Source: Callorhinchus milii
Lineage: Eukaryota
Reading direction: 5' to 3'
Assembly (NCBI RefSeq): GCF_018977255.1
Contig: NW_024704742.1
Span: forward strand, 29,080,001-29,144,000
Length of the DNA: 64,000 nucleotides
The position numbers were made by a program, and so were the translations under genes. The notes under the pieces are model-generated. The model had not been told where the DNA came from and did no database searches. It worked only from the letters and a program-made list of their open reading frames with translations. Of this stretch, positions 3,331 to 59,423 are shown piece by piece; positions within the stretch are counted from its first letter, which is position 1; the number at the start of each line of letters is the position of its first letter.

Positions 3331-3344
3331 TGACATAAGTATAT

Positions 3345-3645
3345 CATCTATACATGGAAATTTCCCTTTGTCTGTAATGGAATATGCATCCTTTCCCGGG
3401 GGTTTCTACCCTGCTTAGCTAAATCTGGATAGTTTTAGGTGCAGGTTGGTAAGATCCAAGCCTTGGGGACCCCAAGGTGTATGCTGGGCTACTGCTGGAA
3501 TCTAACCAGCTAACACCGTGTATCTTGCCATTGAGAGCATAGTCTGGCAAGCTTTCTCGCTGCTTGTTCAACTCAAACCATCCTACCTGTTGGATCTTTG
3601 AAATGCAGGGTTAACAGGAGCTGAGTGGGAAAAATCCCTGCTCTC
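3345..3645 (-). mobile_element. Unclassified structured retroposon, partial copy
   Basis: Reverse complement aligns by eye to about 27680-27970. Confidence 0.7.
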
Positions 3646-4375
3646 CTCATCCTTAGTGCATTCTTAAGTCAAACCTCTTTAAAGCCCTCAATGGAAAGGT
3701 TGCCAGTTAATGCCTAGCTTGGTAAGTATTTTTGATCCTTGAGTGTCTTTTCTTTTACTGTGTGAAAAATGTCACATTTTAATGGAACTCTTAAATGAAA
3801 ACAAGCGCTGTTCATCAAATCTACATCCAGGTTACGTACTTCAATGATGGGGACAGGCTAACACTTCAAAGCAAAGTAAAAGTCAATGCTGAAAGGTCAC
3901 TCTGGGTTTGGCTGCTTCACTTTCCAGCAAAATCGAGGATGTCTGTTTCCTGCATCATGTAGCCACACAGAAAAGTAGCTTACTTTGTGTATGCTAATAT
4001 TGTACCTTAACAATGTTTGAATAGACAGGAGTTACAATTTGTGTCATGTTTGTAACTGTTCAAATGGTATAAATATCAAGTTAATATTAGCATTGCCGCC
4101 AGCTAAAAGAAATCAAAGTCTTTCATAAAATAATCATGTCTTGTTATACCCAAGGCCCTTTACATTCATTTGTTTGACATTTCTTAAAAGAGGGGCAGCA
4201 TCGATATGTGAGAGAAAGAAATTTGCTCAGATTAAATAATGGCCACCAAGGTTGTCCACAAATCCTATAAATCAAACATGTCAATTGGTGTAGGACACCT
4301 TTTTGACCTTCTGTACCTTCTTTCAAAAGTCCAATCACCATCTCTCCAGAGAATGGCTTTGGACACCTGTAGTAA

Positions 4376-10945: not shown

Positions 10946-12339
10946 AAAACCAGACCCAAGTGGAATTTCAATCCACATACAAGTGCAAGTTGTTGCTGTT
11001 GAACAACGAATGATTGTGTTGTCAAAAAATGACCAAGTCACACAAAAGAGGTAGACACTGTAGATAATGAAACAGGCATGCTTGATGATTATTTTGTACA
11101 ACAAAAAATTGAAATGTTTTTGAATGTTCCAACTGATCGTGTACTTGGCCCCAGTACGGTGAAAAGGCAGCAGACTGATAAAGAACATAATGGTAAGAAT
11201 CACCTTTCATTGTTGAGTGTACTAGTGACCATCAAGCATGACACAGCACACCAGCCACGCAATGACAAGTGGAGACCACTCTGATCTCCACGTGACTCAC
11301 TGATGGAAATCCACTGAGGACAAAGGGTGAGTGAAGAAGATCCTCTCTTCTGTTTCCCATCACTCCCGAAAATAATACAGCTAAGGTTTCACTGTAGCAA
11401 CTTTTTACAGATGTGAAAAGCTACCTATGTGCTTTCACTCCATCATCTAATGCTAATCGGTTCAGGGTTAATTGCCATAATCTGGCACCACAGCATTTGC
11501 TAACTGACTTTATGGGAAAACAATGAATTTGCTAATAGCAGAAGGGGCATAGCATCTCATCTTGAGCAATTAAATATTAATGTACGTCTTTCTTTACAAT
11601 TAGCCCAATGATTTTATTAAAGTAGTTTATAAGAGAGAAAGAAAGCAATAATGAATGATACGCTTTGTGGCTGTCATGGGTTTTAATGCAGCAGTGATTT
11701 TTTTTAACCACGAGATGCCAAGTTCTAAAATGGATACTGAGGAATAAATCTGATGATAGACGTGCACTTTGAGTGCATTAGTGCCCTTAGACTGTATGTG
11801 TGCGCGTAATATTTATTATCTCATTAATAGTGCTGCATTTCTATCCAATTGCTTTCAGTGATTCTGTGGCATTCACAGCAGCAACTCTAAAGTGGACAGT
11901 GAGCCTTTTGGAGGCTGATGTATTTGGGGAAAGAGAAATCAGTTTCACCTTTACAATTAGCCCTATATTTAAGGAGCGAAGTTGAGATCAGCAGGCACTG
12001 TTACTTCTACTTACCTCCATACACCAGCACTGATGCAGTGGTAAATACATACCTTGTACTTTCCCCATGACTAAAACCCGATTTTATGATAAGCACTTAT
12101 CAGTCCTCTACTTTCCCCATCACTAAATGGCAAATAACATTTCTTGTTCTTCTTACAGTCTCACTGAAGGACAACATTAATGTTAAGTACACACTTTTCC
12201 CTGTTCGTACCCCATACTAAGGTTCCTATTTAAAGCACAGTTTGCATTATTTAAAAGTGTTCACAGTTGATGCACTCTATCTAAAAATCTCAGTTTTTCC
12301 CTTTTAGACAGAAAATGTCAAACATTCACCTTGAAAGTA

Positions 12340-12595
12340 AGCCAGGTGTCTGACATATGGAGAAACCCTTCAGTTTGGGTATCCAAACCAGACTGAGAAT
12401 TCTACATATGTAGCCCAGAGGACACCCTCTGCTTACCTAATTCCATAAAGTATTAGGCACAGATTAATGAAAGTCAATGCTCGGGCTCCTGCATTGGGGT
12501 ACTGCTTGAGTTTATCCAACTAAATCCATATAGCTTGCCATTGAGAACACTATCTGGCGAGCTTCCTGTTGTGTATCCAACTAGGATATTCATTC
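12340..12595 (-). mobile_element. Unclassified structured retroposon, degraded 3' half
   Basis: Contains CTGCTTACCTAATTCC and GCCAGGTGTCTGACA, reverse complements of family motifs. Confidence 0.65.
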
Positions 12596-12669
12596 CCAGG
12601 CATGGCAGCTTGGAGCCAGCTCCATCCCAAGGGGATCCTGCTTACCAACACCCCAAGGAGGATAGTCAC

Positions 12670-13350
12670 TAGTTGGCAAATGAAGTTTAATGTGGGTGGC
12701 AAATGAAGTTTAATGTAGGAAAATGCGAAGTAATTCACTTCGGCAGAAAAAATAAAGAAGCAGTGTATAGTCCAGATGTAGGGAACTAAGAGGAGTAGAG
12801 AAGCAAAGATATCTAGGCATTCAAATCCACAAATCTCTAAAATTAGCTACACAGATAGACTAGGCTATATTTTTTTTAAAAAAGCCCAGTGGGATCTTGA
12901 GCTTTATATCCAGAGGGATAGAGTATAAAACCGAGGAGGTAATGTTGAATTTATAGATTTTAAGACATTTGGGACATTTTGAATATTGTGCTCAATTTGG
13001 TTCCCTATAACAGAGATGAAAGGAGTGCAATGTAGATTTATGAGGATGGTACCAGGCTGGCAAGTTACTGATATCAGGATAGACTGGATAGGTTAGGCCT
13101 TTTTCACAAGAGAAGAGAGTTTAAGGGGGACCTAATAGAAGTGTTTAAAATTATAAAAGGATTTGGTAAGGTTAACAAAAATCATCTGTTTCCACTGGTT
13201 GGTTGTCTATAACCATGAGGTACAAATACAACAGCAATTAGGGGATCTAAAAGAGAATTTAGAAGGAACTACTTCAAACATGAGATTGTGGAACTTGCTG
13301 CTTGAAGCATTGGTTGAATCAGATATTATACATACATTTAAGAGGAAGCT
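12670..13350 (+). mobile_element. CR1 LINE ORF2 C-terminal remnant
   Basis: WQMKFNVGKCEVIHFG-like, EYCAQF-like and RGDLIEVFKI motifs with many stops. Confidence 0.8.
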
Positions 13351-14134
13351 AGACATCCAACAAGTACAGGTGTGAGCCATCCCTAGGTGGACAATGGGTA
13401 TCAGAGCCTTTTGGTGAGCAGCACAACTCATCAAGACATGCGTAAGAGCTTTGCCTATCCTCCTGCCCACAGCTCAGACACACATCTGTACTCAATGAAC
13501 AATAATTCCACCAGTTGGAAGCTTCAGCAACACCTGCTTACCTCTCTGCAAATCAATCAAGATAGATACCAAGCCCTGAACATATGAGTGTGTGTTCATG
13601 AACCTGAGCTCCAGGTAATGCCTCCCAGCAGCTGTTATCCCAATCCTCAGAGTTTCCCCTGAGGATAAAAAGCTCAACAGACATTTGCCTGAAAGCAGTG
13701 TGATGGAAACCTATATGGGTCAACTTGTAATGTCTCAGTCACTTTGATGCTCCAGAGGTCCACGTCGAATACCAAGTAGCAGGTTTGTGCAACACTAACT
13801 GCTTAATCCAGGTAGTCATATGAAGGGCCTTAGCAAATAGATGAGGCCATTATAAAGCCATCTCCAGGTTGCTGAGCATCAGATCAATGTAAGTCAGAGC
13901 CCTCTCTCCCTACAGCCACTTCCCATTTCGATCACAAATTCATCTAACTGGACTTAGCAAATGGGCTGAAGAGTATCTCCTCCACTGCATTCCCAGGAAC
14001 TGGAGACCATGAAGGATAACTGGCAGGACATTTTATTTACACCACAATCGTCACCTGTTTTACTATCATGAAGTGCTCCAGGACGCTACCCCGCATGAAG
14101 GGCTCTATAAAATGCAAATTGTTGTTGTTTTCAT

Positions 14135-14290
14135 TGTCTCACTCAGTTGATAGCAATCTGGCCTCTGAGGCAAAAGGCTATGAGTTCAAGTCCCATGTCA
14201 GGACTTTCAACTCAAGTAGTCTAAGCTGATGTTCCAATGCAGTTCTGGGGTCTATTGCATTTTCAGAGGTACCATCCTTCTTCCCATCAT
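14135..14290 (+). mobile_element. Deu-domain SINE 5' head, degraded
   Basis: CTCAGTTGATAGCA..GAGTTCAAGTCCC..GCTGATGTTCCAATGCAG. Confidence 0.55.
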
Positions 14291-14454
14291 ACAGTATTTA
14301 ACTGCAAAATATACAGTTATTACAGTAAAATTAAGACATGTTCCCGAAGTGAGTGGAAGGTTTATAGGATTATCAATATCCTTGAAGAGAGACGACAATT
14401 TTTTTTGTGTCCTTTTCACCCTTTCATAATGTGAATAATAATCCTTGCAGTTGA

Positions 14455-14600
14455 ATAGGGCAAGGATTCCCAAGAAGAGCATGTGAGAGGTTAAGGGACG
14501 TGAGGCAAGGGAGGAAATTGGACTTGAGGTGCAGATCAGCCATGATCTTATAGAATGACGGAACAGGCTCGAGGGGCTGAATGGCCTATTCCAGTTTCTA
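14455..14600 (+). mobile_element. CR1 3' end remnant
   Basis: GATCAGCCATGATCTTA..GGCTCGAGGGGCTGAATGGCCTA, as in the 3' UTR of the 25401-27475 copy. Confidence 0.7.
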
Positions 14601-15596
14601 AGAGAGATTCACCCACAATATAAAGGGGGAGAGAAATGAGAGAAAGGAGGCATAAAGTTCGAAAGATGAGATCTTTCAGTGCTCATAGACTGATGACCTA
14701 ATAAATCTACATTAAGCTTAATGCACAGATGTCATTTTGAGTTCTGTAAATGATGTTTAGGATGTCAGGTCTGAAATCTTTGTGAAACATCAGAAGCAAA
14801 ATTAGGAGGAAGGGGGAGTTATTCATTGATTGCATCTTTCCAGAATCTAAACAGTACTTGGAATCTTGAAGTGGGAAAATCAATTGCTAGTAAAAAGCCT
14901 CTCTTCCAAGGGTAGATAGCCAGTGTAAATCTACTTAAGCATTTAGCCCTGTGCCAAGTGCATTGAAGTTCAGGTTGGGGTGACCCAGACTGAATGCCAA
15001 TCCTAGGGTTTATGCGGACAGATGTCCCAATGAATTTTTCAATTCCATCTGAAATTTTTGAGAGATTCACATGAGTTTTTGTACAAGTCTCAGGGGGATT
15101 CGATTGCCTCTGAGTTCTAGCAAACTGGAGCAATGAAAAAGGCTTAAATAAGCACCAACAAGTATTTTAGCCTGTAACATTCAGCTCTTTGTGAAACTGC
15201 AGCTAACACTCCTTACCACAGAATAGTGGCTGATGTTCCTTTCACTGCTATTGAATAAACACTTCAACTCCACAGTCCCTTTACTGCTAAGAATATCTAG
15301 ATAGAGATTAGCCACAAATGTTTAGAGATCAGACGCAGACACTGAACCAATCTAATCAGTTTCATAAATCCACTTTCATCAGGTGCAAACCTGAATCCTG
15401 ATCTCCTGTAATGGAATCTGAGGCCCAAAATGTCTCATGATCTCAAGTCTTAAATCCAGTGTCTTAAAATGTAAATGCGTTCTTAAAATATAATGTTGCA
15501 CAGCATTTTGGAAAATTCTTAAGTTCAGACTTAATTTGGTAGCCAGTTTTCCACTGTTCTTGGAACTATGAAAAATTCCTCACAAATTTAGGGTCT

Positions 15597-15725
15597 CATT
15601 TTGGATAGTCAAGTGTCTAACACGTGGAAAACCATCACCATGCTTAAGAAGATCCAACCAGCTTAGTGTTCCATATATGTATGCCACGTACATATGGAAA
15701 TCTTCCTTTGTCCTGAATGGAGTCT
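15597..15725 (-). mobile_element. Unclassified structured retroposon, 3' end
   Basis: GTGTCTAACACGTGGAAAACCATCACCATGCTTAAGA is the reverse complement of the family 3' end. Confidence 0.6.
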
Positions 15726-16734
15726 CACAGATTTCTTTCATGCACAGCTAATCAGTGGGCTGTGCACCCTGGTGTTACGGATCAATATGAAATGATCAAT
15801 GATCAATACACAGAATTGTGAAATGGCATGTGATAATTACCAGATTGTTGACCTGTAAGTAAATAAAGACTAATCATGTGTGTGATTTCCCCCCCCACAC
15901 CCCCATCCCCACCATCGCCATCCCTGCCACATTATAGCTGCCAAGCAAACAGTGTGACATTGATTGTAAGATAGCACCTTAAGCAATAAAAATAATTAAA
16001 GTTAAGCACTCAATTGACACCGTGTGTGACCATCGTTAAGTATCAACTGATCTCAAGAGTAATTATCAAGAATATGAAACATTTCACTCTTGTATTTGTT
16101 CCGTTCAACGTTTTCAGAAGGAGCCTAATATTCAGCAATTCCTTTGCAGAAATCATCGATTAAACAACTAGCATTGGAACATATATATTTCCTGTGAAGA
16201 AGATGGGCAGAGCAGTTATGGGCTCGGACACCTTTGTACATTAATCCTACTGAAATTAATTTCCGGAATTTGATAACTGAGAGGTTTATCAATATGCCCA
16301 ACGAAGTTTAGTCCAAAAACAGATTGAGATGCTGGTACCTCTTTGTGTCAGGGTCAGGTCTTGTGTTTCATAATTTGTGGTTTGATATGCTGGAGCAAGA
16401 TGGATATTTACAGGCAAAACATTAATTTGTAGCTTAACAGGAACTCATTCACTTGATTTAAAGGTGGGAGGGATCCCATCTGTTGTTATTTCCCTGAGTG
16501 CCTCTTCACTACATGCTTTTAGAAGTGTTACTTCAACACATTATTTTTTCCCTTGACCTTAAAAAGGTCTTGATCACTTAAAGTGGGAATGTTTGCTCAT
16601 GTTTATATAGGCTGTGAGTATATGATCACAATATTGGCTTGGCTGAAAAAGGCTCCTCAGCCCATCTGATCTTATCCTTCCAGAACATTCACTCTACCTT
16701 CCCCTCATCACAACATCAAGGTGCTTTTCAAATG

Positions 16735-20420: not shown

Positions 20421-20703
20421 GGCAGAAGTGATTCTTGGCAGAGGGATCAAAAATAAAGCAGTGAGGGAGAGATCAAGGTATTGGAATGGAAAATCCAATA
20501 AAGAGGGAACAAATGGAGATGGCAAGGCCATTAGCCAAGGCAGTTAAAATCGGCCAGTTGTTTTGCGAGGAATATCATAATATTCAAACAAATATATGGA
20601 AAATATCATGATTTCATAGCTGTGAGAGGCACTGATGGATCATAAAATTCCAATACTTCAGAGCAAACAAGATTTGTCACATGCACTTACCTAAAGAGCA
20701 TAC

Positions 20704-20880
20704 GGGAAGCTTGGCATGCAGTGCCTTCAATGGCAAGCAATGTGGTTTTAACTGGTTGGACTCCAGCCCATTGCACATTCTGGGGTCTCCAAGCTTTGGC
20801 TCTTGCCAACCTGTGCCTAATACTCTCCGGAATAAGGTAAGCAGGATGTGTCCCACCAGGGAGAGAGAGTGCATTGTTTA
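20704..20880 (+). mobile_element. Unclassified structured retroposon, internal fragment
   Basis: GGGTCTCCAAGCTTTGGC..CCTAATACTCTCCGGAATAAGGTAAGCAGG. Confidence 0.7.
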
Positions 20881-25005: not shown

Positions 25006-25400
25006 TGTATTACCAGAATCAAAGACTATGTCAAATGTCTGGCACAGAATATTGAGAAGATTTGCAGTCCTTTCCTTCTCTGGCTAAATCAGAATTTTTC
25101 TTGGAAAGTAATGCATTCAGCCACTAATGGTCTTTGTTTTTTATTGAGTGCTATTTTGAATCGAGCCACATGTTTCAGATCATTAAATTCTTTCCTGAAC
25201 TTCCTTTGCTTCCTTTGCAAAACATTTAAAACCTTAAGAGCATAAAATTTCTTTGGGAACAGAAAAGAACCAGTTACAGCCAATATATTACTGGATATTG
25301 TTCATTACAATTACTCAAGTATTTCTGTTTTATTTAGCTGTCGAATTGGCTCAGTTGGTAGCACCCTCTCTCTATAGGAGTTATCCTCCTTTGGGGGGAG

Positions 25401-27475
25401 ATAACCATGGGAATATGGGAATTAAGAGCAGAAGTAGGCCATTCGGCCCCTCGAGTCTGCTCCGCCATTCAATAAGATCATGGCTGATTTTGTAACCTAA
25501 CTCCATCTGCCGGCCTTATCCCCATATCCTTTAATCCCTTTAGAAATCTATTAATCTCATCTTTGATTATGGTCAAGGCTGAGCATCTACAGCCTTCTGG
25601 GGTAAAGAATTCTATAAATTCATTGCCCCCTGAATGAAGAAGTGTTTCTTCAACTCTGTTCGAAAGGGCTGTCCTTTAATCTTAAGACTGTGACCCCTAG
25701 TTATAGATTCTCCTACCAGGGATACAGTCTCACGCTGTCTACTCTGTCAAGCCCCATAAGAATCTTATATGTTTCTATAAGATCACCCCTAATTCTTCTA
25801 TATTCTAGAGAATATAGGCCTAGTTTACTCCACCTATTCTCATAGGTCAGCCCCCTCATCCCAGGAGCGAACCTAGTGAATCTACGCTGCACCTCTCTAA
25901 GGCGAGTATGTCCTTTCTTAAATAAGGAGACCAAAACTGCACACAATATTCTAGGTGCGGTCTCACCAGGGCCCTATACAGTTGCAGCAAGACTTCGCTA
26001 CTCTTGTATTCTAACCCTTTGGCAATAAACACCAACATGCAATTCGCCTACCTAGTTGCTTGCTGTACCTGCATACTAACTTGTTGTGACTGGTGTACAA
26101 GGACACCCAAATCCCTCTGAACACTAACACTATCTAGTCTCTCCCCCTCTAGAAAATAATCTGCTTTTCTGTTTTTACTACCTAGCTGAATAACTTCACA
26201 CTTCCCCACATTATATTCCATCTGCCACATTCTTGCGCACTCACCTAGCCTATCTATCCCTTTGCAATCTTTTTGTGTCATCCTCAGCACTTACTCTCTC
26301 TCACATAGCTTAGTATCATCCGCGCAGTTAGATATTTTAAATTCTATGTCCTCATCTAGATCATTGATATAGATTGTAAATAGTTGAGGCCCAAGCACTG
26401 ATCCTTGTGGCTCTCTACTAGTCACATCCTGCCAATCTGAGAAGGACCCGTTTATCCCTACTCTGTTTTCTTCCCGTTAGCCACTCTTCGATCCATGCTA
26501 ATATATTGCCTTTAATTCCATGGGCCCTAATCTTGTGTGGCAGCCTTTTTTGTGGCACCTTGTCGAATGCCTTCCGAAAATCTAAATATAGTACATCTAC
26601 TGGTTCCCCCCTATCTAACCTGCTAGTTACATCCTCAAAAAACTAAAATATTTGTTAAGCATGACTTCCCTTTTGTTAAGCCATGTTGTCTCTGCCTAAT
26701 CATGTTATGATCTTCTAAGTACCCCACTACAACGTCCCTAATTAAGGATTCTAGAATTTTCCCTACCACCGATGTCAGACTAACTGGTCTATAGTTCCCC
26801 ATCTTCTCTCTCCCACCCTTCTTAAATAGTGGTGTTACGTTTGCGATCTTCCAATCAATGAGAACCGTTCCAGAATCCAGAGAATTTTGGAAGATCAAAA
26901 ACAAGGCATCCACTATCTCAGCAGCCACCTCTTTTAAAACCCTAGGATGCAGGCGATCAGGTCCAGAGGATTTGTCATTTTTCAATCCCAACAGTTTCCA
27001 AAGTACTAATTCTTTACTGATGTTAATTTCCCTAAAGTGCTCACTAACATTAGCTTCTTGGTTCCCCTCTATTTTTGGTAGGTTTTCAGTGTCTTCTAAT
27101 GTGAAGACAGAAGCAAAGTATTTGTTTAATGACTCTGCCATATCTTTATCCCCCATTATAATTCCTCCTGTTTCTGCCTGTAATGGACCCACATTCACTT
27201 TTGCTAGTCTCTTCCACTTCATGTATTTGTAAAAACTCTTGCAGTCTGTCTTTATGTTTCTAGCTAGTTTGCCCGGATAATCCATTTTTTCCCTCCTAAT
27301 CAGTTTCTCAGTTTTTCTTTGTTCGTCTCTGAATCCCCTCCTAATCCTCGGGTTTACTGCTTTTTTTGGCAGTATTATAGGTCTCTTCGTTTAATTTTAT
27401 ACTTTCCCTAACTGCTCTAGTTAGCTATGGTTGAACCACTTTTCCCGTGGTATTTTTGTTCCTCAAGGGAATATG
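25401..27475 (-). mobile_element. CR1 LINE, about 2.1 kb, 5'-truncated; ORF2 reverse transcriptase pseudogene
   Basis: ORF pieces KSSGPDRLHPRVLKE, DWKIANVTPLFKKG, NYRPVSLTSVVGK, QHGLTKGKSCLTN, ADDTK, WQMEYNVGKC, RPHLEYCVQFWSP, RGDLIETYKI; several frameshifts and stops. Confidence 0.95.
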
Positions 27476-27480
27476 TGATC

Positions 27481-28047
27481 GGGGAGTCCTTGGAGCTGAA
27501 CTGGCTCCAAGGTGACATGCTTAACAACAGAATGTCGGAATCGAGCTAGCATTCTGTTGCGGTCTCGGTAGTCCGGTTCCTGAGCCAGGCGGATCCACAG
27601 TATTCCAGGGACTGCTGATGTCAGCACAGATAGCCTGGCTTATCAACAGGACTTGGAAGGGCAGACCAGTCACTGGTGGTAGGAAATCATCCCACGCCAC
27701 TCCTGTTAACCCTGCAAGCCTAGCTGGACAAGCAGCAGCAGGAAAGCTTGCCAGACAGCAATATCAACGGCAAGCTACGTGGTTTTAGCTGGTTAGACTC
27801 CAGCAGTACCCCAACGCACACCCTGAGGTCCCCAAGCCTTGGCGTCTGCTAACCTACGCTTAATACTTTCCGGAATTAGGTAAGCAGGATCTGTCCCTCC
27901 GGGGGGAGAGTGCGCATTGCAATCCGACAATCTATCTCTGAGATATCCCTGCGTACATGGGATGTATGGAATTCTCAGCTTGGCTTGATACTCTTAAGCA
28001 TGGTGATGGGATTCCACATGTGCCAGACACCCGGCTGAACAAAAAAA
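27481..28047 (+). mobile_element. Unclassified ~570-nt structured poly(A)-tailed retroposon, apparently full length
   Basis: About 9 homologous copies in the window; starts GGGG then a 9-bp hairpin; ends GGCTGAAC(A)7; no long ORF. Confidence 0.8.
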
Positions 28048-28239
28048 TCTCTGCAGGAGGCCCTGCTTGCCTCCCCCAAGGAGGATATTTACTAGTTGGT
28101 CAAGTCACCTCAGGAATGGAATGATCAAATGCAAAGTAATGGTTCCCTCCTTCTGTTCCAACAATTTATGGTAGCTTCAATCCCTGCATGAGCACCCCCT
28201 ACTGCGCCAGTATCATATTTTCCCCTTTCACTCCACCCT

Positions 28240-34993: not shown

Positions 34994-35347
34994 TGAGATA
35001 ACATTTGGTCATTGACATAGATGTTACTTTCATATCCCATTTTTTTGAGACCACAACTCAAGATACTGCCACTTGAGACCCACATTTAGCTTTTGTAAAT
35101 GCTAGTACTGTTTCACGCCCCATGTCGGGATTTGGGGATCAAATAGTTAAGGTGACACTCCAATGCAGAATTAGTAGGTGTGCTGTGCTATTAGAGGTGC
35201 CATCATTTGGATCTTTTGCCATCTATCGAGGTCAATCTGCCTGTTCAGAGGACCTTAAAGATCCCATTGCATACTTTGAAAAGAGAAGAGAGTTTCTCCT
35301 GGTATCCTGACCAACAATCCCCTAGCTAAAGCTCCAGCTAAAATTAA

Positions 35348-36237
35348 GGGGGGGTCTCCTTGGAGCTGAACTGGCTCCAAGGAAGGTGACATGCTTATCA
35401 AAGAAATGTCAGAATCGAGCCAACCTTCTGTGGCAGTCTCGGTAGTCCAGTTCCTGAACCAGGTGGGTCCGCAGTATTCTACAGCACTGCTGATGAGAAC
35501 ACAGCCAGTCTGACTCATCTGCAGGAACTGGAAGCATAGACCAATCACTGGAGTAGGTCATCCCACTCAGCTCCTGTTAACCCTGCAAGCCAAAGCCCTA
35601 ATGGCTAGGGTGATCCTAGCTGGACAAGCAGTGGGAAAGCTTGACAGACAGCGATTTCACCGGCAAGCTTTGCGGTTTTAGCTGGTTAGACACCAGGAGT
35701 ACCCCAATGGACACTCTGGGGTCCCCAAACCTTGGCTCCTGTGGAGTCCTGTAGCTCAGTGATTAGAGCACTCGCTTTGCAAGTGAGAGACCTGAGTTCA
35801 ATTCCAGGCAGGGCGAAACCTTGGGCAAGTTTCCTTACTCCACACGCCTAATAATAATCCCTCCAAAAAATAAAGCAATTGGTCACTTTCAATCCATGAC
35901 TGTTTGTGGGACACTGCTGTGCGCAATTGGATGCCGCGTTCGCCCACAAATATACAGTCAATTCACTTTACAGTATATTCTGTGAAGCGCTTTGGGACAT
36001 CTAGAAGACGTGAAAAGCGCTATATCAAATGCAAGGATTATTATTATTATGACCTTCCTGAGCCTAATACTTTCCAGAATTAGGTAAGCAGGATGTGTGC
36101 CTCCAGGGAGAGAGTGCGCATTACATTCCAACAATCTATCTCCGGAATGTGAATGTCTAGGTGGGACGCATGGAATTCTCAGTTTGGTTTGGATACTCTT
36201 AAGCTTGGTGATAGGTTTCCGCATGTGACCCAAAAAA
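35348..36237 (+). mobile_element. Unclassified structured retroposon, full length, split by a SINE
   Basis: Same 5' start as the 27481 copy; ends in an A-run at 36232-36237; flanked by TSD. Confidence 0.8.
35741..36050 (+). mobile_element. tRNA-Ala/CORE-like SINE, well-preserved copy
   Basis: A-box-like TAGCTCAGTGA, anticodon arm CTCGC-TTTGCAA-GTGAG, B-box GTTCAATTCC, CCTTGGGCAAGT, (ATT)n tail. Confidence 0.9.
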
Positions 36238-37331
36238 CTAAAATTGATCATTCACTACAAGGCTATCTGTGAGACATTGCTGTGCGTAAATTTTCTGCCA
36301 TGTTCTTCCACAAAACACACAGTCATTACACTCCACAATATATCCTGTGAAGCGCTTTGAGACGTCCTCCTGAGATGAAAGTCACTATGTTAAATGCAAA
36401 GATTATTGCTATTACTGATTTATGCTATGATTTATAACGTGTGTGACTTGACTTCACACAGGAATGGTTATTGATGGCATAATAATAATATTAATAATAA
36501 TAATCCTTGCATTTGATAGGGCCCTTATCACGCCGTTGAGACTCTCACACTTTATACAAGTATCTCTCTGGATCTTTCAAAGACCTTAAACGGGAAGCTG
36601 TAAAAAGAGAAGTCCCTCTGCACAAACTTATGTTGCATTGACTTTGATACAGAGAGACAGATGCTGCTGCTCAGTGGTCCCGCAGGCTCTTATAGCAATG
36701 CACTTACTCACAGTGAAGAGAGCTGGAGACCGATTAGGTCTGCCATGATTTTTGAATCAAGTCTCCTGTAAAACCACGGCTGCCATGATTAGCCTGCCAC
36801 AGCAGTCACTAAAAACAAACACGCTGCTATATCAGCAGCTAGGAACCATACACAGCAATCTCTCCTATCATTCTTTTATTGCTGTGAATAAAGAGAAAAT
36901 CGATGACAAAGGGTTTTTAATTCTAAAAATCCAGCCTCAGCAAAACCCTGCAATGACATTAAGGCACCAACGTGGAGTGTTATACTAGTCCGGGTGCCCA
37001 AATCCAGGCATTTTCAATCCCAGTTATTATCCTGAATCTGTAAAGTGGATTTCAGTCATTCAAGTTTGTTCCATCAATGAAAGGGCACAATGAGAGGTTA
37101 CATGAATCACAGTGAGTTAAAGGCACAGTTTCTGGACAGAACAAGGATTCCAGATATACAGTACAACAGAACTATAGGGGTGGCATTTACAGTATTCCTT
37201 AATACATTCCTTGACTTACTTAAAGAACATCAGGAGTGACCCTCTCTAGGAAAGAGGCCTGCTCTTCTTAGTATCCTTTGGATGCTATTTGCTCAGAGCC
37301 TGAAGTTAAGGAACACTTTAACCCATTTAAA

Positions 37332-38024: not shown

Positions 38025-39175
38025 CAATAGTCCTTGCATTCGATATAGCATTTTAATTCATCAAGAAAACATCTCAAAGCACTTCACAGGATTTAATAAT
38101 AATAACAATTCTTGCATTTGATACAGTGCCTTATCACATCGTTGCGACATCTCAAAGTGCTTCACGGGGTGTACTGTAAAGTGTATTGACTGTGTATTTT
38201 ATGGGCAAAACGTGGCAGCCAGTTGCACACAGAAACGCCCCACAAACATCCATGGAATGAGGGATCAATTTTATTTAGGGGATTGTTGACCAGGACACTG
38301 GAAAAAACTGCCTTTTTTGTTGAATAGAACCATAGATCTTTAACATCCACTTAAACCAGAAGATGAGACCTTGGTTTAACGTCTCATCTGAAGGATAGTG
38401 AAGTATAAAGTACATTTACTGTAAAGTGTAATGACTGTGTAACAGTGAATACGACAGCCAATTTGCACATAATATTGTCCCACAAATACCCATGACGTTA
38501 ATGACCAATTTTATCTTGGGGATTGTTTGCCAGGACAACATGAGAAACTCCCTTCTCTTTTTGAATAATGCAGTTGAATGTTTAATGGTCATATGAACAG
38601 GACTTGGAAGGGCAGACTCCTGGAGGCAGGGATTCTTCCCACTCAGCTCCTGTTAATCCTGCAATAGATAGTGGGGGCCAAGCTGGACAAGCAGCGGGAA
38701 AGCTTGCCAGACAGTGCTATCAATGGCAAGTTATACCGTTTTAGCTGGTTAGACTCCAGGAGTAACCAAACTCTCACTCTGGTGTCTCCAAGCCTTAACT
38801 CTTGCCAACCTGTGCTTAATATTCTCCAGAATTAGATAAACAGGATACGTCTCTCCAGGGAGAGAGTGCACATTCCATTCCAATAAACATCTTTAGAATT
38901 TTGATATGTGGATGGGATAGAACTATCAGTTTGCTTTGGATAATCATAAGCATGATGATGGGTTTTCGCATGGTCAGACACCTGCCTGACCAAAAAAAAC
39001 TGAACAGGGAGACGAGATCTTGGTTAAACGTCTCATACAAAGGATGACAATGCAATGCAACACTCCTCCCAGTACTACACTGGAGTGTCAACTTAAGACT
39101 ATGAGTTTAAAGACCTTGAAACCACAACCAACCAATTCACTCCAAAATGAGAGTGCCACAACTAAGTCAGCCTGA
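38025..39175 (-). mobile_element. Cluster of same-orientation Deu-domain SINEs; the last is split by an insertion at 38602-39000
   Basis: Tails at about 38025 and 38095, bodies at 38095-38400 and 38400-38600 plus 39001-39175. Confidence 0.75.
38602..39000 (+). mobile_element. Unclassified structured retroposon, 5'-truncated, with TSD
   Basis: TGAACAGG at 38594-38601 and 39001-39008; A8 tail at 38992-38999. Confidence 0.8.
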
Positions 39176-42880: not shown

Positions 42881-43156
42881 TTTCTTGGGGATTACTGGGG
42901 AATCATAAATAGGTGACTGAGGGACTAGAAATGTTCCTGTTGACTTACAGACTAATAGATCTTGAGTGTTAAAAAAGTCAAGTTCGTTGCTTGTTGTTGT
43001 GTAAGGGAGGGTGGTCCAATAGGTCACTACGTGGGTCCCTGACAAGTTATTACAGGATGTAGGTTGGTGGGGAGGGGGCTGGGGAGTTTCTTGACATGGT
43101 ACTGCAGGTATTCTGGAAATAAAAGGGCAATTAAAAAAAATGTTTTTATACAGAGG

Positions 43157-43597: not shown

Positions 43598-43717
43598 AAC
43601 ATGTTAGTTTATCATCGGGTGTTATTGGATCACATTAAAAACATTCCTGTTGACTTACAGACTAATAGATCTTGAGTGTTAAAAAAAGTCAAGTTCGTTG
43701 CTTATTGTTGTGTAAGT

Positions 43718-43927
43718 CAGGGTGGTCCAACCATCCCGGATGCCCTATTTGATACACGCACGCAGGCTGGATAACCAATATTTTTGTGTTTCCCTTCCAG
43801 AAACAGAGCATAATATTTCCGGGGTTATGGAGGGAACGGGTGGGTCACATGAAATGGAGTGGGGGCGCGGATAAAATTGGTCTGCAGCCGGATGCAACCC
43901 GCGGGTCACCAGATGGACAAACCACTT
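43718..43927. mobile_element. hAT/Charlie-like MITE, degraded
   Basis: Starts CAGGGTGGTCCAACC and ends GATGGACAAACCACT; GC-rich subterminal CCCGCGGG; no clear 8-bp TSD. Confidence 0.5.
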
Positions 43928-48835: not shown

Positions 48836-49080
48836 TAATAATAATCCTTGCATTTGATATAGCGCTTTTCACGTCTTCTGGACATCTCAAAGCGCTTCAC
48901 AGAATATACTGTAAAGTGAATTGACTGTATATTTGTGGGCTAACGCGTCAGCCAATTGCGCACAGCAGTATCCCACAAACAGTCGTGGATTGAAGTGACC
49001 AATTTATTATTGCCGGGAATCGAACCCAAGTCTCTCGCTTGCGAGGCGAGTGCTCTAACCACTGATCTACAGGACTCCAC
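48836..49080 (-). mobile_element. tRNA-Ala-headed SINE lacking the CORE block, well preserved
   Basis: Minus head GTGGAGTCCTGTAGATCAGTGGTTAGAGCACTCGCCTCGCAAGCGAGAGACTTGGGTTCGATTCCCGGC joined directly to the Deu-like 3' body; CpGs retained. Confidence 0.9.
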
Positions 49081-49092
49081 TTTTCAAACTTA

Positions 49093-49193
49093 CTTACAGT
49101 ATATCCTGTGAAGCGCTTTGAGATGTCTCAAAGACATGATAAGGCGCTATAGCAAATGCAAGGATTATAATTATAATTATTATTATTATTATT
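49093..49193 (+). mobile_element. SINE tail fragment
   Basis: Family tail plus long (ATT)n; inverted relative to 48836-48915. Confidence 0.8.
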
Positions 49194-53550: not shown

Positions 53551-54866
53551 CAGAGTTGCACCTTTATAAACTAATGTAAAGGAACCCCTTGTAAACTGTA
53601 ACCCCTTTAAGAAAAACAATTGCTTGCCCTTTAATAAGAAGATTCCCCATATTCATGGGCTAAAATCCTGTGCCCATGCAAAGTGAATTTCTCTGCTGTG
53701 AGGGAAATTTCATTTGGTGCAACATGCCTCTTTGACCTTCTCAAGGGCATGCAACGCTAGGTAAACCCAAGTGTTTTTATGGCTTTAGCAACCTCCTGAC
53801 CTGTTGAGAGGTATGCGTTATCCTTATTGAACTCTACCCTACCAAGATCTGTCAAGGTCAGTTTGTTTGGGCCACCAGCAGAAATTTCAACCTTGGTCTC
53901 TGGTCAAGGCAAAGAGACTTTGACGGAGAACTGCAGTCTCCTTTGCTCTCTCCACTGCTCATCCTCAACTGAAATACCTTTCAACTCCACCATATCATTT
54001 GCTTGCAACTAATTAGACATTGGGGATTAATTTATCCAGATTACTAAATATCCCATTATGGGGCTGTAGTGAAACAAAATTGCTATTATTAGCACAGCGT
54101 CAGCTAACTCCCATTATTCAAAGATTTTTTCAAGGATTTTACCACTAATGGTCTGTGAGGAGTTGTTTAACAGAACTCTGCAATGTTTATGGGAGAAAAT
54201 GATAAGGATTTTAGCTTGTGGTTGCTGCAGCTTGTCATCTCAGCCTCTTTATCGGGAAGACAATTACTATATTAGGGTATAATGTGGGGTAATGCAAATG
54301 TGAAATTTTCCTGTAACTGAAACATATCACATCAACCGATGGGAAATTCACTGATATGATCTCTTTCTGGAGCACAGTTTCCATAGCTCTACAGGAATTC
54401 TTATTAAGGAATCTCGTACAGAAATACTGCAATTCGGACCCTGTTTGTCTACAACATATGCAGGCACTACAGTTTACAGAAATCCTGTTAACCTTTTCAA
54501 GACATCATCCTGAAGTAAAAGGCGCTATATCAATTGCAAGGATTATTTTTCATTTAGTATTTATTAAGGATGAGGATTCATCGAAGAGCAAAGGAAAAAC
54601 AGCAAAGCAGGAAATGAGCACCATTGCACGAGTGCAGACCAATCCTGCAAAGACTCCTCAACACTTTGTGATTGTCTTTGCACACAATCATCAAAATCTG
54701 TGGAAGACATATTATTTCTCTATATATTACTACGAAGATGTGTAATTTATTATTACTATGAAGACGTTATTTCTCTATCTTTCAGATGGGAGTTTAATTA
54801 GTGGTATTTCTTTATGGGATGCCTTAATGTTATTCTACCCCATAAAACCTTTTATTTGTGTTACAT

Positions 54867-55065
54867 TGCCAACCTACGCCTAATACTTTCCAGAATTAGG
54901 TAAGCAAGATGCATCCCTCCAGGGAGAGAAGAAAGTGTCCCTTCCATTCCAACAATCGATCTCCGTGTAGGTGGGATACATGGAATTCTCGGTTTGGTTT
55001 CTGTACTCTGATGCATGGTGATGGGTTTCCTCATGTGTCAGATACCTGGCTGATCCTCCAAAAAA
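54867..55065 (+). mobile_element. Unclassified structured retroposon, 3' third
   Basis: CCTAATACTTTCCAGAATTAGGTAAGC..GCATGGTGATGGG..CAGATACCTGGCTG, then an A-run. Confidence 0.75.
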
Positions 55066-57489
55066 TTGTGTTACATTTCTGCAATCCAGAACATCTGACC
55101 ATTTACAGCTCATCTCTCTCGCCTGCCAGTTTTTTTTCCATCAGTAAGTTCCTTTATTTTATACCCATTAGAAAAGAACAGATGTGCAAGAGTTTATTAC
55201 TGTATAAGGCAGTCACACATGTTAGAGTTTAGGTAACCGAAAAACCTGAGTAACAAATCTAAGTTTATATAGTATCAATGGAATTCCTTGAGGCACTTGT
55301 CCCCAATAAAACAGTTACAAGTTATTGCTTGTTCTCTATCCTGTGAAAACGCTGCTGTGGTGAATATCAATCTTGCCAATTTGTTCAGTTATAATGACTG
55401 TGCCATTATTCTGAGGAGCCCAGGGAATGAGAGGCAACACGGTTTGCCAATGCCACAAAAGTATTCTTTGACATGATCGTTACTTTAATTTTCACTGCAT
55501 TGAAATAACTGTGCAGCAGGCAGTAAAACAAAGAGGCTGACAGAGAGCGAATTGAAAAATACTCTCAGAATCATTGTGTGCATGTGCCAGAGTGACATTG
55601 AAACAAAATTAATGATTCCAGGGACCACTTTTGATTTACTGATTGAAATTCAATTTTTGTACACAATTTGATTGTTCTAAATTAGTTGGGTGGGCAGTAG
55701 TCTAGCCGAAATAGCTCAATTTGAGCAAAACAATTTCAAACTACCTCAGGTGTTAGATTGTTACAAAGATTGAGTTGAATCACTTTCTGCCCGAGTTGTT
55801 CATAGATGGCACTGATCCAGATTAATCAGAAAGAAAATACCGGGGAAGGATTTTTTTTAACGTGAGGGCGAGCCATAAACCTTAACCCAGCTTTTCCCAT
55901 TAAGTGAAGCCCTTTAACAATGAGGCCCTCTTGGTTGCTCAGGAACAGTTTTTGTTTTTAGACAAAGGACCTCAGAGGTGAAAAGTAATGCCGAATTTTC
56001 ACAGCTTTGAGCCGGTGCTAAAGGGATTGTTTGAGTTGTCCAAATAATGCTCTCCCTCCTCTTTGAAATCCTTGGCTTCATTATTAAAACAGTGGATGCC
56101 AAAGATAAACACATTTCTTTTTGTTCAGTAGATTACAGCACGAAGCTTGGAATAACACTTAGTCGCCAATGTCAAAGTAATTTGAAAACTGCAGACTTTT
56201 CAAGCAGGTCTGGAATGCAGTAGGAAAATGCTATTTATTTGCTAATTTTAGCTAGCTTAAATCAGAAATGATGGATAACACAGAGCCTGCTTAGCCCATT
56301 AAATCTTTCAAAGTTCTCCAAATGTGCTTTCCCTTATCAAACCAAGAGCTTACACAGTTCACAGTTCTTAAATGGACATGATTCTTAAAGGGACACAAGC
56401 ACTTTAAGACGTCCTCCTGACATCAAGGGCACTACATCAATGTAAATTATATTGTATTCTTCAGAAAAATGTGTCTGGGAAGGATTTTTGAGAGCTGGGG
56501 AAGAAACAGAAAGGCAGTGTATAATTTCCCAAACCGTGGAAAGAACAGTGTAGACACAATTTAAGTCACAGTATTATGCATTTGGAAATATATAATGAAA
56601 GATTATCAAAACCATTTACATGAAGGAAGTGCTTCTTATACCCTGGGTGGGTCTGCTTTTTGAGCATTTCGGTAAGGGGTTTTTCAAAAGTATCCTGGTA
56701 ATCCAGGTAGGTTCATGATAACCCAAGACAGACACAAATGTAGAAGTATCCTCAAGTCTGCGAGCTAAAGCCCTAACAGGGTAGAACAGTCCTAGCTGGG
56801 CAAGTGCTGCACCTATTGCATTCTAACAGACTTTGCCATCTCATTGACATCATTGACACAATGTTTCCACATACACCAAAGCAGCAGAACAAGGTTTAGG
56901 GTTGCAGAAGGTATTTTCAGGACAGACACCAAGAAGTATTTATTTTTACAAAGAGGAATGATCAGCTGGAATGGGTTACCAGGAAGAGACCAGACTGCTG
57001 GACTTGTTTAAGAAACAGCTTGACATTATATAAGGGAAGAATAGTAGGTCTGATATGCTAGAAAGATGAAATGAAATGGAACCTATAGAGTTCAATACTT
57101 GGGAGAATCGGCCACAAGTGGCTACTCAAACCCTGACAAACATTTTGCGCACCAAGAAAAGTGTGCAAAGTGTTAGAAATGTTGTAATCTAAGCTTTCTC
57201 AATCGAGTTTTCCATTTTACAATAGTTTATTCATTTTGATTCATGTACATTTTACCTGTGCCGTAGGGCCCTCAACAATCAGTGCCACATGTGTGAATGG
57301 TTAAACTGTCATATTTTGCGAAGGCATTTTAAACATTGACTTGTGTTTATTTTTAAGAGAAAATAACATCAAAGTGGTCTCATTTCCAATCCTAACTTGA
57401 CTGTGTAAAACTGACAGTAACAAAAAACAGCCCTTTCCCATAGCACTATATCTCCAATAATTGAGCCCAGACCTGTTGGTCTGTGAGGG

Positions 57490-58090: not shown

Positions 58091-58574
58091 ATCACTAAAT
58101 TGACCCTATTAATACAGTAGAGAGGCTTTCTTCTGAAGCTGAGGTCTGAAGAACATCTAGCCATTGGATACATACACTGCACAGTGCTTTGTTTATTAAT
58201 TTTTAGGCTCAGAGGGTTTAAGAAGATGCCTACATGTGCCAGGTGCTGGCTTTTTTTTCCTGGTGAGTCTCCTTGGAGCCTCCTCAGCCCCAGAGAGACT
58301 ATTCTAATCTTAAAGGAATCAACAATCAGCTGAATTGAATTTTCGTGTAAAAAATGAAATGGTTTCCTGTCATAAGTGCACGTGGTACCTTGCTCTAAAG
58401 TTAGCCGAGTGACTGCTCTGGCCAGTGTAAATTCAACTGTTTTCACCTTATATACGTGTGAATGTATTATGTATAATACTTTCCTTTTATATATGTGAAT
58501 GCATTCAATATTAAAATGAATAACAGACCAGCTCATCAGATCATCAGGATTTGAAGGAGCAGATTGGAGGTGTG

Positions 58575-58920
58575 GATTCTTCCCACTCGTGTCAAATTAA
58601 TTCTGCAAGTCAGGGTGAGGTAGAGTAGTCCTAGTTGGAAAGTCCCAGTAAGAAGTTTGCCACTCAGCAATTCCTGCTTGGTTTTAATTAGTTAAACTAC
58701 AGCAAAACCATCAACACATACTCTGGGATCTCCAAGCTCTGGCTCTTTCTAACCTCCAGCTAAACATTTCAGGATTAGATGAGAAGCATGCGTCTCTCTG
58801 GAGAGAGAGTGCACACTTCATTCCAGACAAACAGAAATTTCTAAGCACATGTGGAACGCTCAGTCCAGTTTGGATATTCTCAAGCATGGCAATAGGACTC
58901 CGTATGTGTCAGATACATAC
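58575..58920 (+). mobile_element. Unclassified structured retroposon, old 5'-truncated copy
   Basis: GGATCTCCAAGCTCTGGC..GAGAGAGTGCAC..AAGCATGG..GTGTCAGATAC. Confidence 0.65.
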
Positions 58921-59423
58921 ACAAGTGACAAAATAAACCACAAAAAAATAACCTTACCATTTATTCTGTGACTTTCTTTCCCTCAAAGATTAACTCCCTG
59001 GTATTCTGAAATGAGAAATCTATAAAATTAGCTTGAATGGGCGCATTTACATGTGTGCGTGTGTGTGCAGCACTCTGCCTCACTGACACTGGCAATATGC
59101 TAATTTACCACTTATTTCATTTTCAGTTGATGACAATGTTCAGCTCGTTGGAATTGGTGGGTCAGACAGAGCTCTGTGTTGTATTTGCTTCCATTGATGT
59201 TACCCAAGAATTTGATTAATCTCATTGCTTTTCTATCTCTGAACACTTAAAATTTAACTTGGGTGTTTTAACGCAGGAGGGGGCGGGGAAGCTGATTGCT
59301 AACCCTTGTCTCACAATAATTTGTTGATATTATTCCGCTTACTGGCCTGAAATCTGACTGTTGTAGTGAACTGGTGTTAACCCTCTCAGAACCAAAGGGT
59401 TTTGTTTCCGACAAAGCTTCCAT

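Follow-up and report, generated by a model that had tools for sequence, protein, structure and literature searches.

The closest described systems to the repeat family analyzed here are the 3' ends of L1/Tx1 LINEs, ORF-less derivatives of other LINEs, holocephalan SINEs, and retroposons that lack a Pol III promoter. L1/Tx1 elements generate target site duplications (TSDs) of 7–18 nt (available part of PMC6007223), L1 is known to carry a CCHC knuckle at the C-terminal end of ORF2 (as given in the accessible sections of PMC3821027), and a structured 3' region is expected of non-mammalian L1 (PMC7245038, in part). Clades reported to yield ORF-less bipartite derivatives include RTE, Ingi, Vingi, and R2, at least in the sections available of PMC5786205. 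Holocephalan SINEs (SINE2-1_CM, SINE2-1B_CM, and SacSINE1-CM) carry a tRNA head, a CORE or Deu body, and an L2 tail (PMC5499810, partial text). In a 64,000-nt stretch of Callorhinchus milii DNA, hereafter the window, we analyzed a repeat that is a real, old, and very abundant family of A-tailed retroposons of known kind, the copies of which are dead. It constitutes either the 5'-truncated tail end of a LINE or a short non-autonomous element derived from one, and in both cases ordinary genomic debris.

All nine copies listed in a preliminary description of the window are homologous to one another, as observed by blastn with copy 27481 as the query and by nhmmer (E-value of 4.8e-29 or better, for a model built from the same nine copies that were scored). 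A profile search of the window recovered 9/9 copies and added only two weak matches, namely the 5' piece of copy 12340 and a 50-nt match at 56753. Pairwise identity among the copies varies between 56 and 82% (34 pairs that share more than 40 columns), and identity to the window consensus between 73 and 89%. Five younger copies (27481, 35348, 38602, 54867, and 20704) show 86–89% identity to this consensus and four older ones (3345, 12340, 58575, and 15597) 73–79%. The family was active in at least two waves. The features of the family and of its surroundings are collected in Table 1. The window also carries a tRNA-Ala SINE family as well as LINEs that we take, by characteristic motifs, to belong to the CR1 and L2 clades. 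A 13-nt exact match to an arm of the 5' hairpin of the element was observed at 58264–58278, approximately 260 nt upstream of copy 58575, and is either a remnant or a chance occurrence. Two further local features are a 95-nt direct duplication with 93% identity (42926–43019 and 43636–43730) and a long hairpin formed by two inverted SINE tails (48871–49137, with a chance MIR395 match).

Table 1. Positions of the repeat copies and associated features in the window
Feature	Position	Strand	Remarks
Copy 3345, older	3333..3647	-	both ends truncated
Copy 12340, older, with 5' piece	12334..12676	-	internal deletion of ~200 nt; no A-run
Old CR1 fragment directly upstream of copy 12340	12677..13357	+	
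Candidate decayed LINE ORF2 C-terminal region	13358..14050	-	frameshifted C-X2-C...H-X4-C at 13480; orientation as copy 12340
CR1 tail piece	14486..14601	+	continues the CR1 of 12677-13357 in CR1 coordinates
Copy 15597, older short 3' copy	15599..15728	-	A4
Copy 20704, internal fragment	20697..20875	+	homology ends before 3' end
Left TSD of whole 27481 insertion	25369..25380	+	10/12 identical to 28048-28059
True 5' piece of copy 27481	25380..25405	+	small hairpin with G-run; severed by CR1
Later CR1 LINE splitting copy 27481	25406..27478	-	5'-truncated; RT-like frames, CR1-type tail
Body of copy 27481	27481..28040	+	lacks ~25 nt near 27718 carried by majority
A7 tail of copy 27481	28041..28047	+	
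Right TSD of 27481 insertion	28048..28059	+	
Inverted 5'-only piece of the family	28060..28100	-	inside tRNA-SINE head
Copy 35348, 5' part	35347..35741	+	starts at second G-run; TSD CTAAAATT
tRNA-Ala-headed SINE inserted in copy 35348	35741..36050	+	
Copy 35348, 3' part	36052..36239	+	A6
Copy 38602, 5'-truncated	38588..39000	+	A8; TSD TGAACAGG overlaps element sequence (microhomology)
Copy 54867, 5'-truncated	54866..55065	+	A6; 12-nt TSD
Copy 58575, older, 5'-truncated	58527..58948	+	73% to consensus

The abundance of the family was assessed with contigs from four of 24 sequencing runs, covering three organisms, which were aligned to positions 27421–28170 at 80% likeness. The four runs yielded 25,771, 5,580, 14,539, and 10,329 aligned contigs. 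In run X1 the depth ranges from 8,000 to 231,000 over the element and is 7.5 in the unique flank, a ratio of the order of 10^3–10^4 that is not to be equated with a copy number. Judged from these contigs, related copies are very abundant in all three organisms, of the order of 10^4. Scans for further copies gave no match in viral contigs, none in genome contigs, and two in metagenomes, both chance matches within bacterial genes. Five exact motifs of the element did not occur in the literature searched, nor was a description of the family found there, and a name for it may exist in Repbase or Dfam. Specifically, the family is absent from the portions available of PMC5786205, PMC6007223, PMC5499810, PMC7245038, PMC4494074, and PMC4350176, and likewise from those of PMC12952989, PMC13343379, PMC5203782, PMC4176376, and PMC3821027.

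Copy 27481 was originally about 600 nt long and was split afterwards by a CR1 LINE of 2.07 kb on the minus strand. In the window, the 26-nt piece severed at 25380–25405 has just two further matches, one with the 5' end of copy 12340 (p = 0.001) and one with the inverted piece at 28060–28100 (p = 0.0006). Moreover, the whole insertion, CR1 included, is enclosed by a TSD whose two sides agree in 10 of 12 letters (p = 0.005 over 81 offsets). The G-run at which two copies had been thought to start together is, for copy 27481, the CR1 junction, and its apparent start there results from this later insertion. The unit length of ~570 nt proposed earlier is likewise to be revised to ~620–630 nt, because approximately 35–45 nt more lie above 27481 and about 25 nt are missing near 27718. 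The case illustrates how nested insertions can fake a common 5' start. The target of the 27481 insertion was a tRNA-SINE head, with its A-box side at 25337–25370 and a B-box-like side near 28098–28110; this head already held, or gained in the same event, the inverted 5'-only piece, which is accordingly either an older copy or a by-product of the 27481 insertion. In the contigs, the opposite-strand joint between 27487 and 28059 has a depth of 630, compared with 7.5 in the flank.

A shared 3' end with A-tails, as claimed in the preliminary description, is found in most copies; in copies 3345 and 20704 the homology ends ahead of the 3' end, and copy 12340 has no A-run. The tails are pure A-runs. 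The two TSDs reported before are both present (8 nt, p about 0.01 each), and a further one of 12 nt flanks copy 54867 (p = 0.0015). Altogether, TSDs of 8–12 nt were found for four of nine copies, and none beyond chance for the other five. Three of the four begin with T and none with an A-run. Microhomology is present at the 5' junctions of copies 38602 and 54867. The 5' ends form a gradient, and seven truncation events average about 560 nt in length. The dispersal of the copies, their A-tails and TSDs, the gradient of 5' truncation, and the nested insertions are directly observed, and of these A-tails, TSDs, and 5' truncation back the earlier proposal of target-primed reverse transcription. 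By analogy with established LINE biology, the copies were probably inserted by a LINE protein in this manner, by priming on poly(A) and with frequent early stops. That the mobilizing LINE differs from the local L2 and CR1, as suggested before, is also supported.

The repeat is, at about even chances, the 3' terminus (620–630 nt) of a poly(A)-tailed LINE that is old and abundant, a reading that we slightly prefer over that of a discrete element. The parent LINE would have carried an ORF2 with a C-terminal CCHC knuckle, the L1/Tx1 group being the lead and RTEX or the I group being possible. Its own protein would nick the target, prime on the poly(A) of its own RNA, and copy from the 3' end. Most copies would halt early, at the mean length given above, and many at a G7-containing hairpin located 600–630 nt from the tail; the dead copies were later hit by younger CR1 and tRNA-SINE insertions. 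We infer this LINE, its clade, and the stop of the polymerase at the hairpin.

A candidate coding region upstream of copy 12340 lies beyond the CR1 fragment adjoining this copy, in a stretch of 46% GC on the same strand as the copy, with its knuckle motif at most 125 nt from the junction. Such a motif is expected 0.003 times per given 200 nt, and in the whole window it occurs at background frequency (3 vs. a mean of 1.7). With the CR1 removed, the second half of the knuckle falls in a frame that, in the 5' part of copy 35348, runs for 102 codons interrupted by a single stop; the agreement in frame has a one-in-three chance, and an open run of this kind is, by our estimate, not rare across six frames. 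Further residues around the candidate knuckle are presumably L1-like, as judged by eye against known motifs. The CR1 pieces flanking 13358–14478 are contiguous in CR1 coordinates (up to 1922 and from 1940), and the block may therefore have inserted into the CR1. Against such an insertion, the block lacks an A-tail where it meets the CR1, and the window contains a second short CR1 tail whose start coordinate is similar. The order of elements within 12334–14615 is repeat copy, 5' part of CR1, LINE-ORF2-like stretch with SINE pieces, and 3' part of CR1, an interleaving that simple nesting does not explain if both pairs belong together. An 18-nt tandem duplication is present at the 5' junction of the CR1, near 12677–12720.

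The preliminary description had foreseen the case of a consensus that runs upstream into a LINE ORF2. Here, 13358–14050 is a suggestive candidate for such an ORF that may be linked to the element; it has no database match. A protein search of the frames against 1.84 billion representatives returned a single match, an elephant-shark COPS5 model that carries a putatively exonised copy. Searches of Pfam, NCBIfam, PDB, and viral contigs gave nothing meaningful for the frames of the element or for 13358–14050, Pfam gave no zinc-finger-RT match for the candidate knuckle, and a plasmid search with 13366–14050 gave no match. The residues of the COPS5 model that lie upstream of the element do not match 13366–13460. 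No reverse transcriptase or endonuclease ORF of the L1/Tx1 kind is present in the window. As stated previously, the element has no long intact ORF, its longest stop-free run being 87 codons. A coding reading of the 5' half was not supported by the protein searches or by any third-position excess of changes (23/99, 29/95, and 28/107), so that the 5' 300 nt may be coding or untranslated, and a reading of the codons in the tail as an RTE ORF end was dropped on inspection by eye.

Several observations stand against a LINE tail and in favor of a discrete, non-autonomous element, which we regard as a serious possibility at somewhat less than even chances. This retroposon would be ~625 nt long, possess a 5' end of its own, and depend on the parent LINE for copying in trans. 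It would be either a bipartite internal-deletion derivative of an RTE-type LINE, in which a 5' UTR piece is joined to the 3' tail, or a LINE 3' end that became an element by itself, and its RNA would come from Pol II read-through or processing. The shared G-run start, on which non-autonomous status had been based, is the CR1 artefact described above; the corrected 5' ends still cluster, with 25380, 12676, and 28100 falling within about 10 nt and copy 35348 being truncated ~35 nt lower, at 35347. With a truncation rate of 0.0018 per nt, the chance of two further ends within a 12-nt window is 0.0004 if the ends are independent, and the chance of the clustering overall is 0.0004–0.006 under the same assumption, which the three ends may not satisfy. 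Most of the clustering is removed because it is the CR1 that determines where copy 12340 ends on its 5' side, and because the piece ending at 28100 and copy 27481 may be products of a single event. The TSD-bounded 5' end of copy 27481 is within about 10 nt of that of the 28060–28100 piece, with a chance of 0.02 per further copy.

The loose ends of the contigs bear on the same choice between LINE tail and discrete element. Behind 28047 they are A-rich and then random (agreement of 0.35). Above 27487 they show the G7 run and AGGTAAGC and then become unclear (0.49–0.51), compared with agreement of mostly 0.55–0.70 inside the element. Long low-agreement loose ends above 27487 occur in 450, 349, and 264 contigs of the three organisms, and their median length (231–255) resembles that of the unique 3' flank (255) and not that of internal ends (10–121), which argues for a discrete 5' end. 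Nonetheless, at the far end of the 30 nt displayed, the letters 22–30 nt above 27487 differ in the three organisms from the plain A/T behind the tail, and some copies therefore continue upstream. No foreign sequence joins the tail internally among the 24 loose-end rows listed (3,075 others exist), so that these rows give no sign of an abundant partner with only the last 100 nt in common. A further point against the LINE tail is that none of the four TSDs starts with an A-run. Mammalian-type L1 has an A-rich nick site; this is not required for Tx1-like groups.

An RTE origin of the discrete element finds some likeness in the tail. The last 30 nt before the A-run resemble the tails of AFROSINE3, BovB, and MAR1 in 18–19 of 25–26 columns by eye (sequences from the available part of PMC5786205), and a pattern derived post hoc from these tails matches copy 38602 and none of 100 shuffles. 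TSDs of 8–12 nt, three of four of them starting with T, fit the RTE ranges in the accessible text of PMC6007223; nevertheless, the same text gives microsatellite ends for animal RTEs, as opposed to the pure A tail seen here, and A-starting TSDs for the RTEs with A-rich tails. The element has no counterpart of the conserved core that marks the Ceph domain of the RTE 5' UTR (other RTE 5' UTR types were compared by motif only, in part), no HDV-like or hammerhead ribozyme was found, and a motif scan by eye revealed no RTE ORF piece in the window.

A more specific version, which we consider unlikely, is that most copies come from a headless and promoterless RNA of ~625 nt that consists of the folded LINE 3' end only, is released at a fixed point, and has out-replicated its parent across chimaeras. 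A longer transcript would be cleaved or processed at the G7 hairpin, beside the 5'-splice-site-like AGGTAAG, and the RNA thus released would have given rise to tens of thousands of copies that are SINE-like without a small-RNA head or a LINE 5' end. The motif GGTAAGC(A/G)GG occurs twice in the element (at the 5' end, equivalent to ~27466, and at 27878–27889) and once at 13541 on the minus strand; it resembles a 5' splice site, and the majority of organism B reads AGGTAAGT. An excised intron, with a 5'-splice-site-like start and a branch-point-like end, was considered and dropped, since the shared sequence extends above the GT. In run X11, the type of which was guessed as RNA, there are a few single contigs of depth 481–3470 with private indels unlike those of the DNA runs, and one deep contig joins the 5' piece to 27487. 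One dominant copy may be transcribed, although contigs of a guessed RNA run say nothing firm on transcription.

The origin from a structured RNA, one of the alternatives raised earlier, was not supported by any search. In this scenario the copies would be retrocopies of a structured cellular RNA from a conserved source locus, mobilized through an added poly(A), and we consider it very unlikely. The four stems named before are all present. Richness in hairpins holds for the consensus of the window copies, which folds better than shuffles (z of -4.5), and is modest for a single copy (z of -2.5 for the whole of copy 27481); only 1 of 27 windows of 150 nt is below a z of -2, compared with 5 of 40 random controls. 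Among the 33 majority letters listed (241 rows lie beyond), at least 7 restore stems by eye and at least one breaks an outer pair of the 27525/27550 stem; the restored stems include a perfect 10-bp helix (27612–27621/27640–27649). This helix interlocks by eye with another 10-bp helix of the majority sequence (27581–27590/27633–27642), with an overlap of 3 nt, and the two are pseudoknot-like or mutually exclusive. The reverse strand, however, folds almost equally well (z of -3.5), the suggested Rfam search returned no match for the element, and the suggested covariation check gave two-sided changes in only 2 of 17 pairs and an unfavorable covariation term (seven copies under neutral decay make this a weak test). 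Furthermore, the existence of old and young subfamilies and a copy number of about 10^4 speak for a lineage that propagated itself. The ancestral master sequence was rich in short inverted repeats, which may have formed a working RNA structure.

The remaining candidates, namely a conventional SINE whose 5S or tRNA head has degenerated, a hammerhead retrozyme, a Penelope piece, and a solo LTR, are largely refuted and highly improbable. Close to its 5' end the element has 17 nt that are similar to the 5S box A (14/17 by eye), whereas there is no 5S or tRNA covariance match, and a 5S-derived head is not supported. In agreement with the preliminary description, no tRNA head was found, and there is no pair of A and B boxes, both of which were detected in a neighboring SINE as a control; the element contains an internal T4 run at 27783. 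CTGATGA is present once, but there it is part of a stem, as one of the arms, with no GAAA to be found within 138 nt, and neither a core search nor Rfam found a hammerhead core in the element. A descriptor search found no HDV-like core in the consensus, and Rfam none; the single sense-strand core in copy 12340 compares with 9 of 30 shuffles that also have one. Furthermore, the element has A-tails and lacks TG...CA ends.

With the LINE tail as the preferred reading, the family is ordinary LINE debris and is of value when repeats are annotated in chimaeras; it is abundant there and already forms part of at least one gene model. In the elephant-shark COPS5 model, ~106 residues that are largely read from the repeat replace the normal C-terminus, which reflects either exonisation or a gene-model error. 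If the 5' end is discrete, a high-copy non-autonomous family is added to those of cartilaginous fish, and it would serve as a test case for the transcription of headless retroposons and for stall sites of LINE reverse transcriptases.

In comparison with known systems, the family resembles SINEU, Sadhu, and SVA, which are neither LINEs nor SINEs, in the lack of a Pol III promoter and in the internal oligo-T (PMC4494074, in the part available), as well as in mobilization in trans if the discrete-element reading is true; it differs in having no snRNA-derived or other recognizable head. The holocephalan SINEs introduced above share with it the kind of genome, a high copy number, and a similar range of divergence, and copy 35348 is interrupted by a tRNA-Ala SINE of this general type; none of their three modules is found in the family. 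Bipartite RTE elements (RTE-N1/N2_Lch, RTESINE2, WALLSI3, and MAR4_MD; PMC5786205, partial text) are of a similar size class, have neither an ORF nor a small-RNA head, and show short TSDs, and the tail of the family is like those of BovB, AFROSINE, and MAR1 by eye. In contrast to them, it has no Ceph-type 5' UTR core, ribozyme, or identified RTE partner, and ends in pure A instead of a microsatellite. Relative to L1/Tx1 LINEs, the family shows no visible reverse transcriptase or endonuclease, its TSDs lack A-run starts, its 5' ends pile up near 620 nt, and it does not share the single target sequence of many Tx1 families (available sections of PMC4494074). With the 3' ends of these LINEs it has in common the poly(A) tail and 5' truncation, TSDs within their range of lengths, inverted repeats comparable to the structured 3' region, and the candidate CCHC knuckle upstream of copy 12340.
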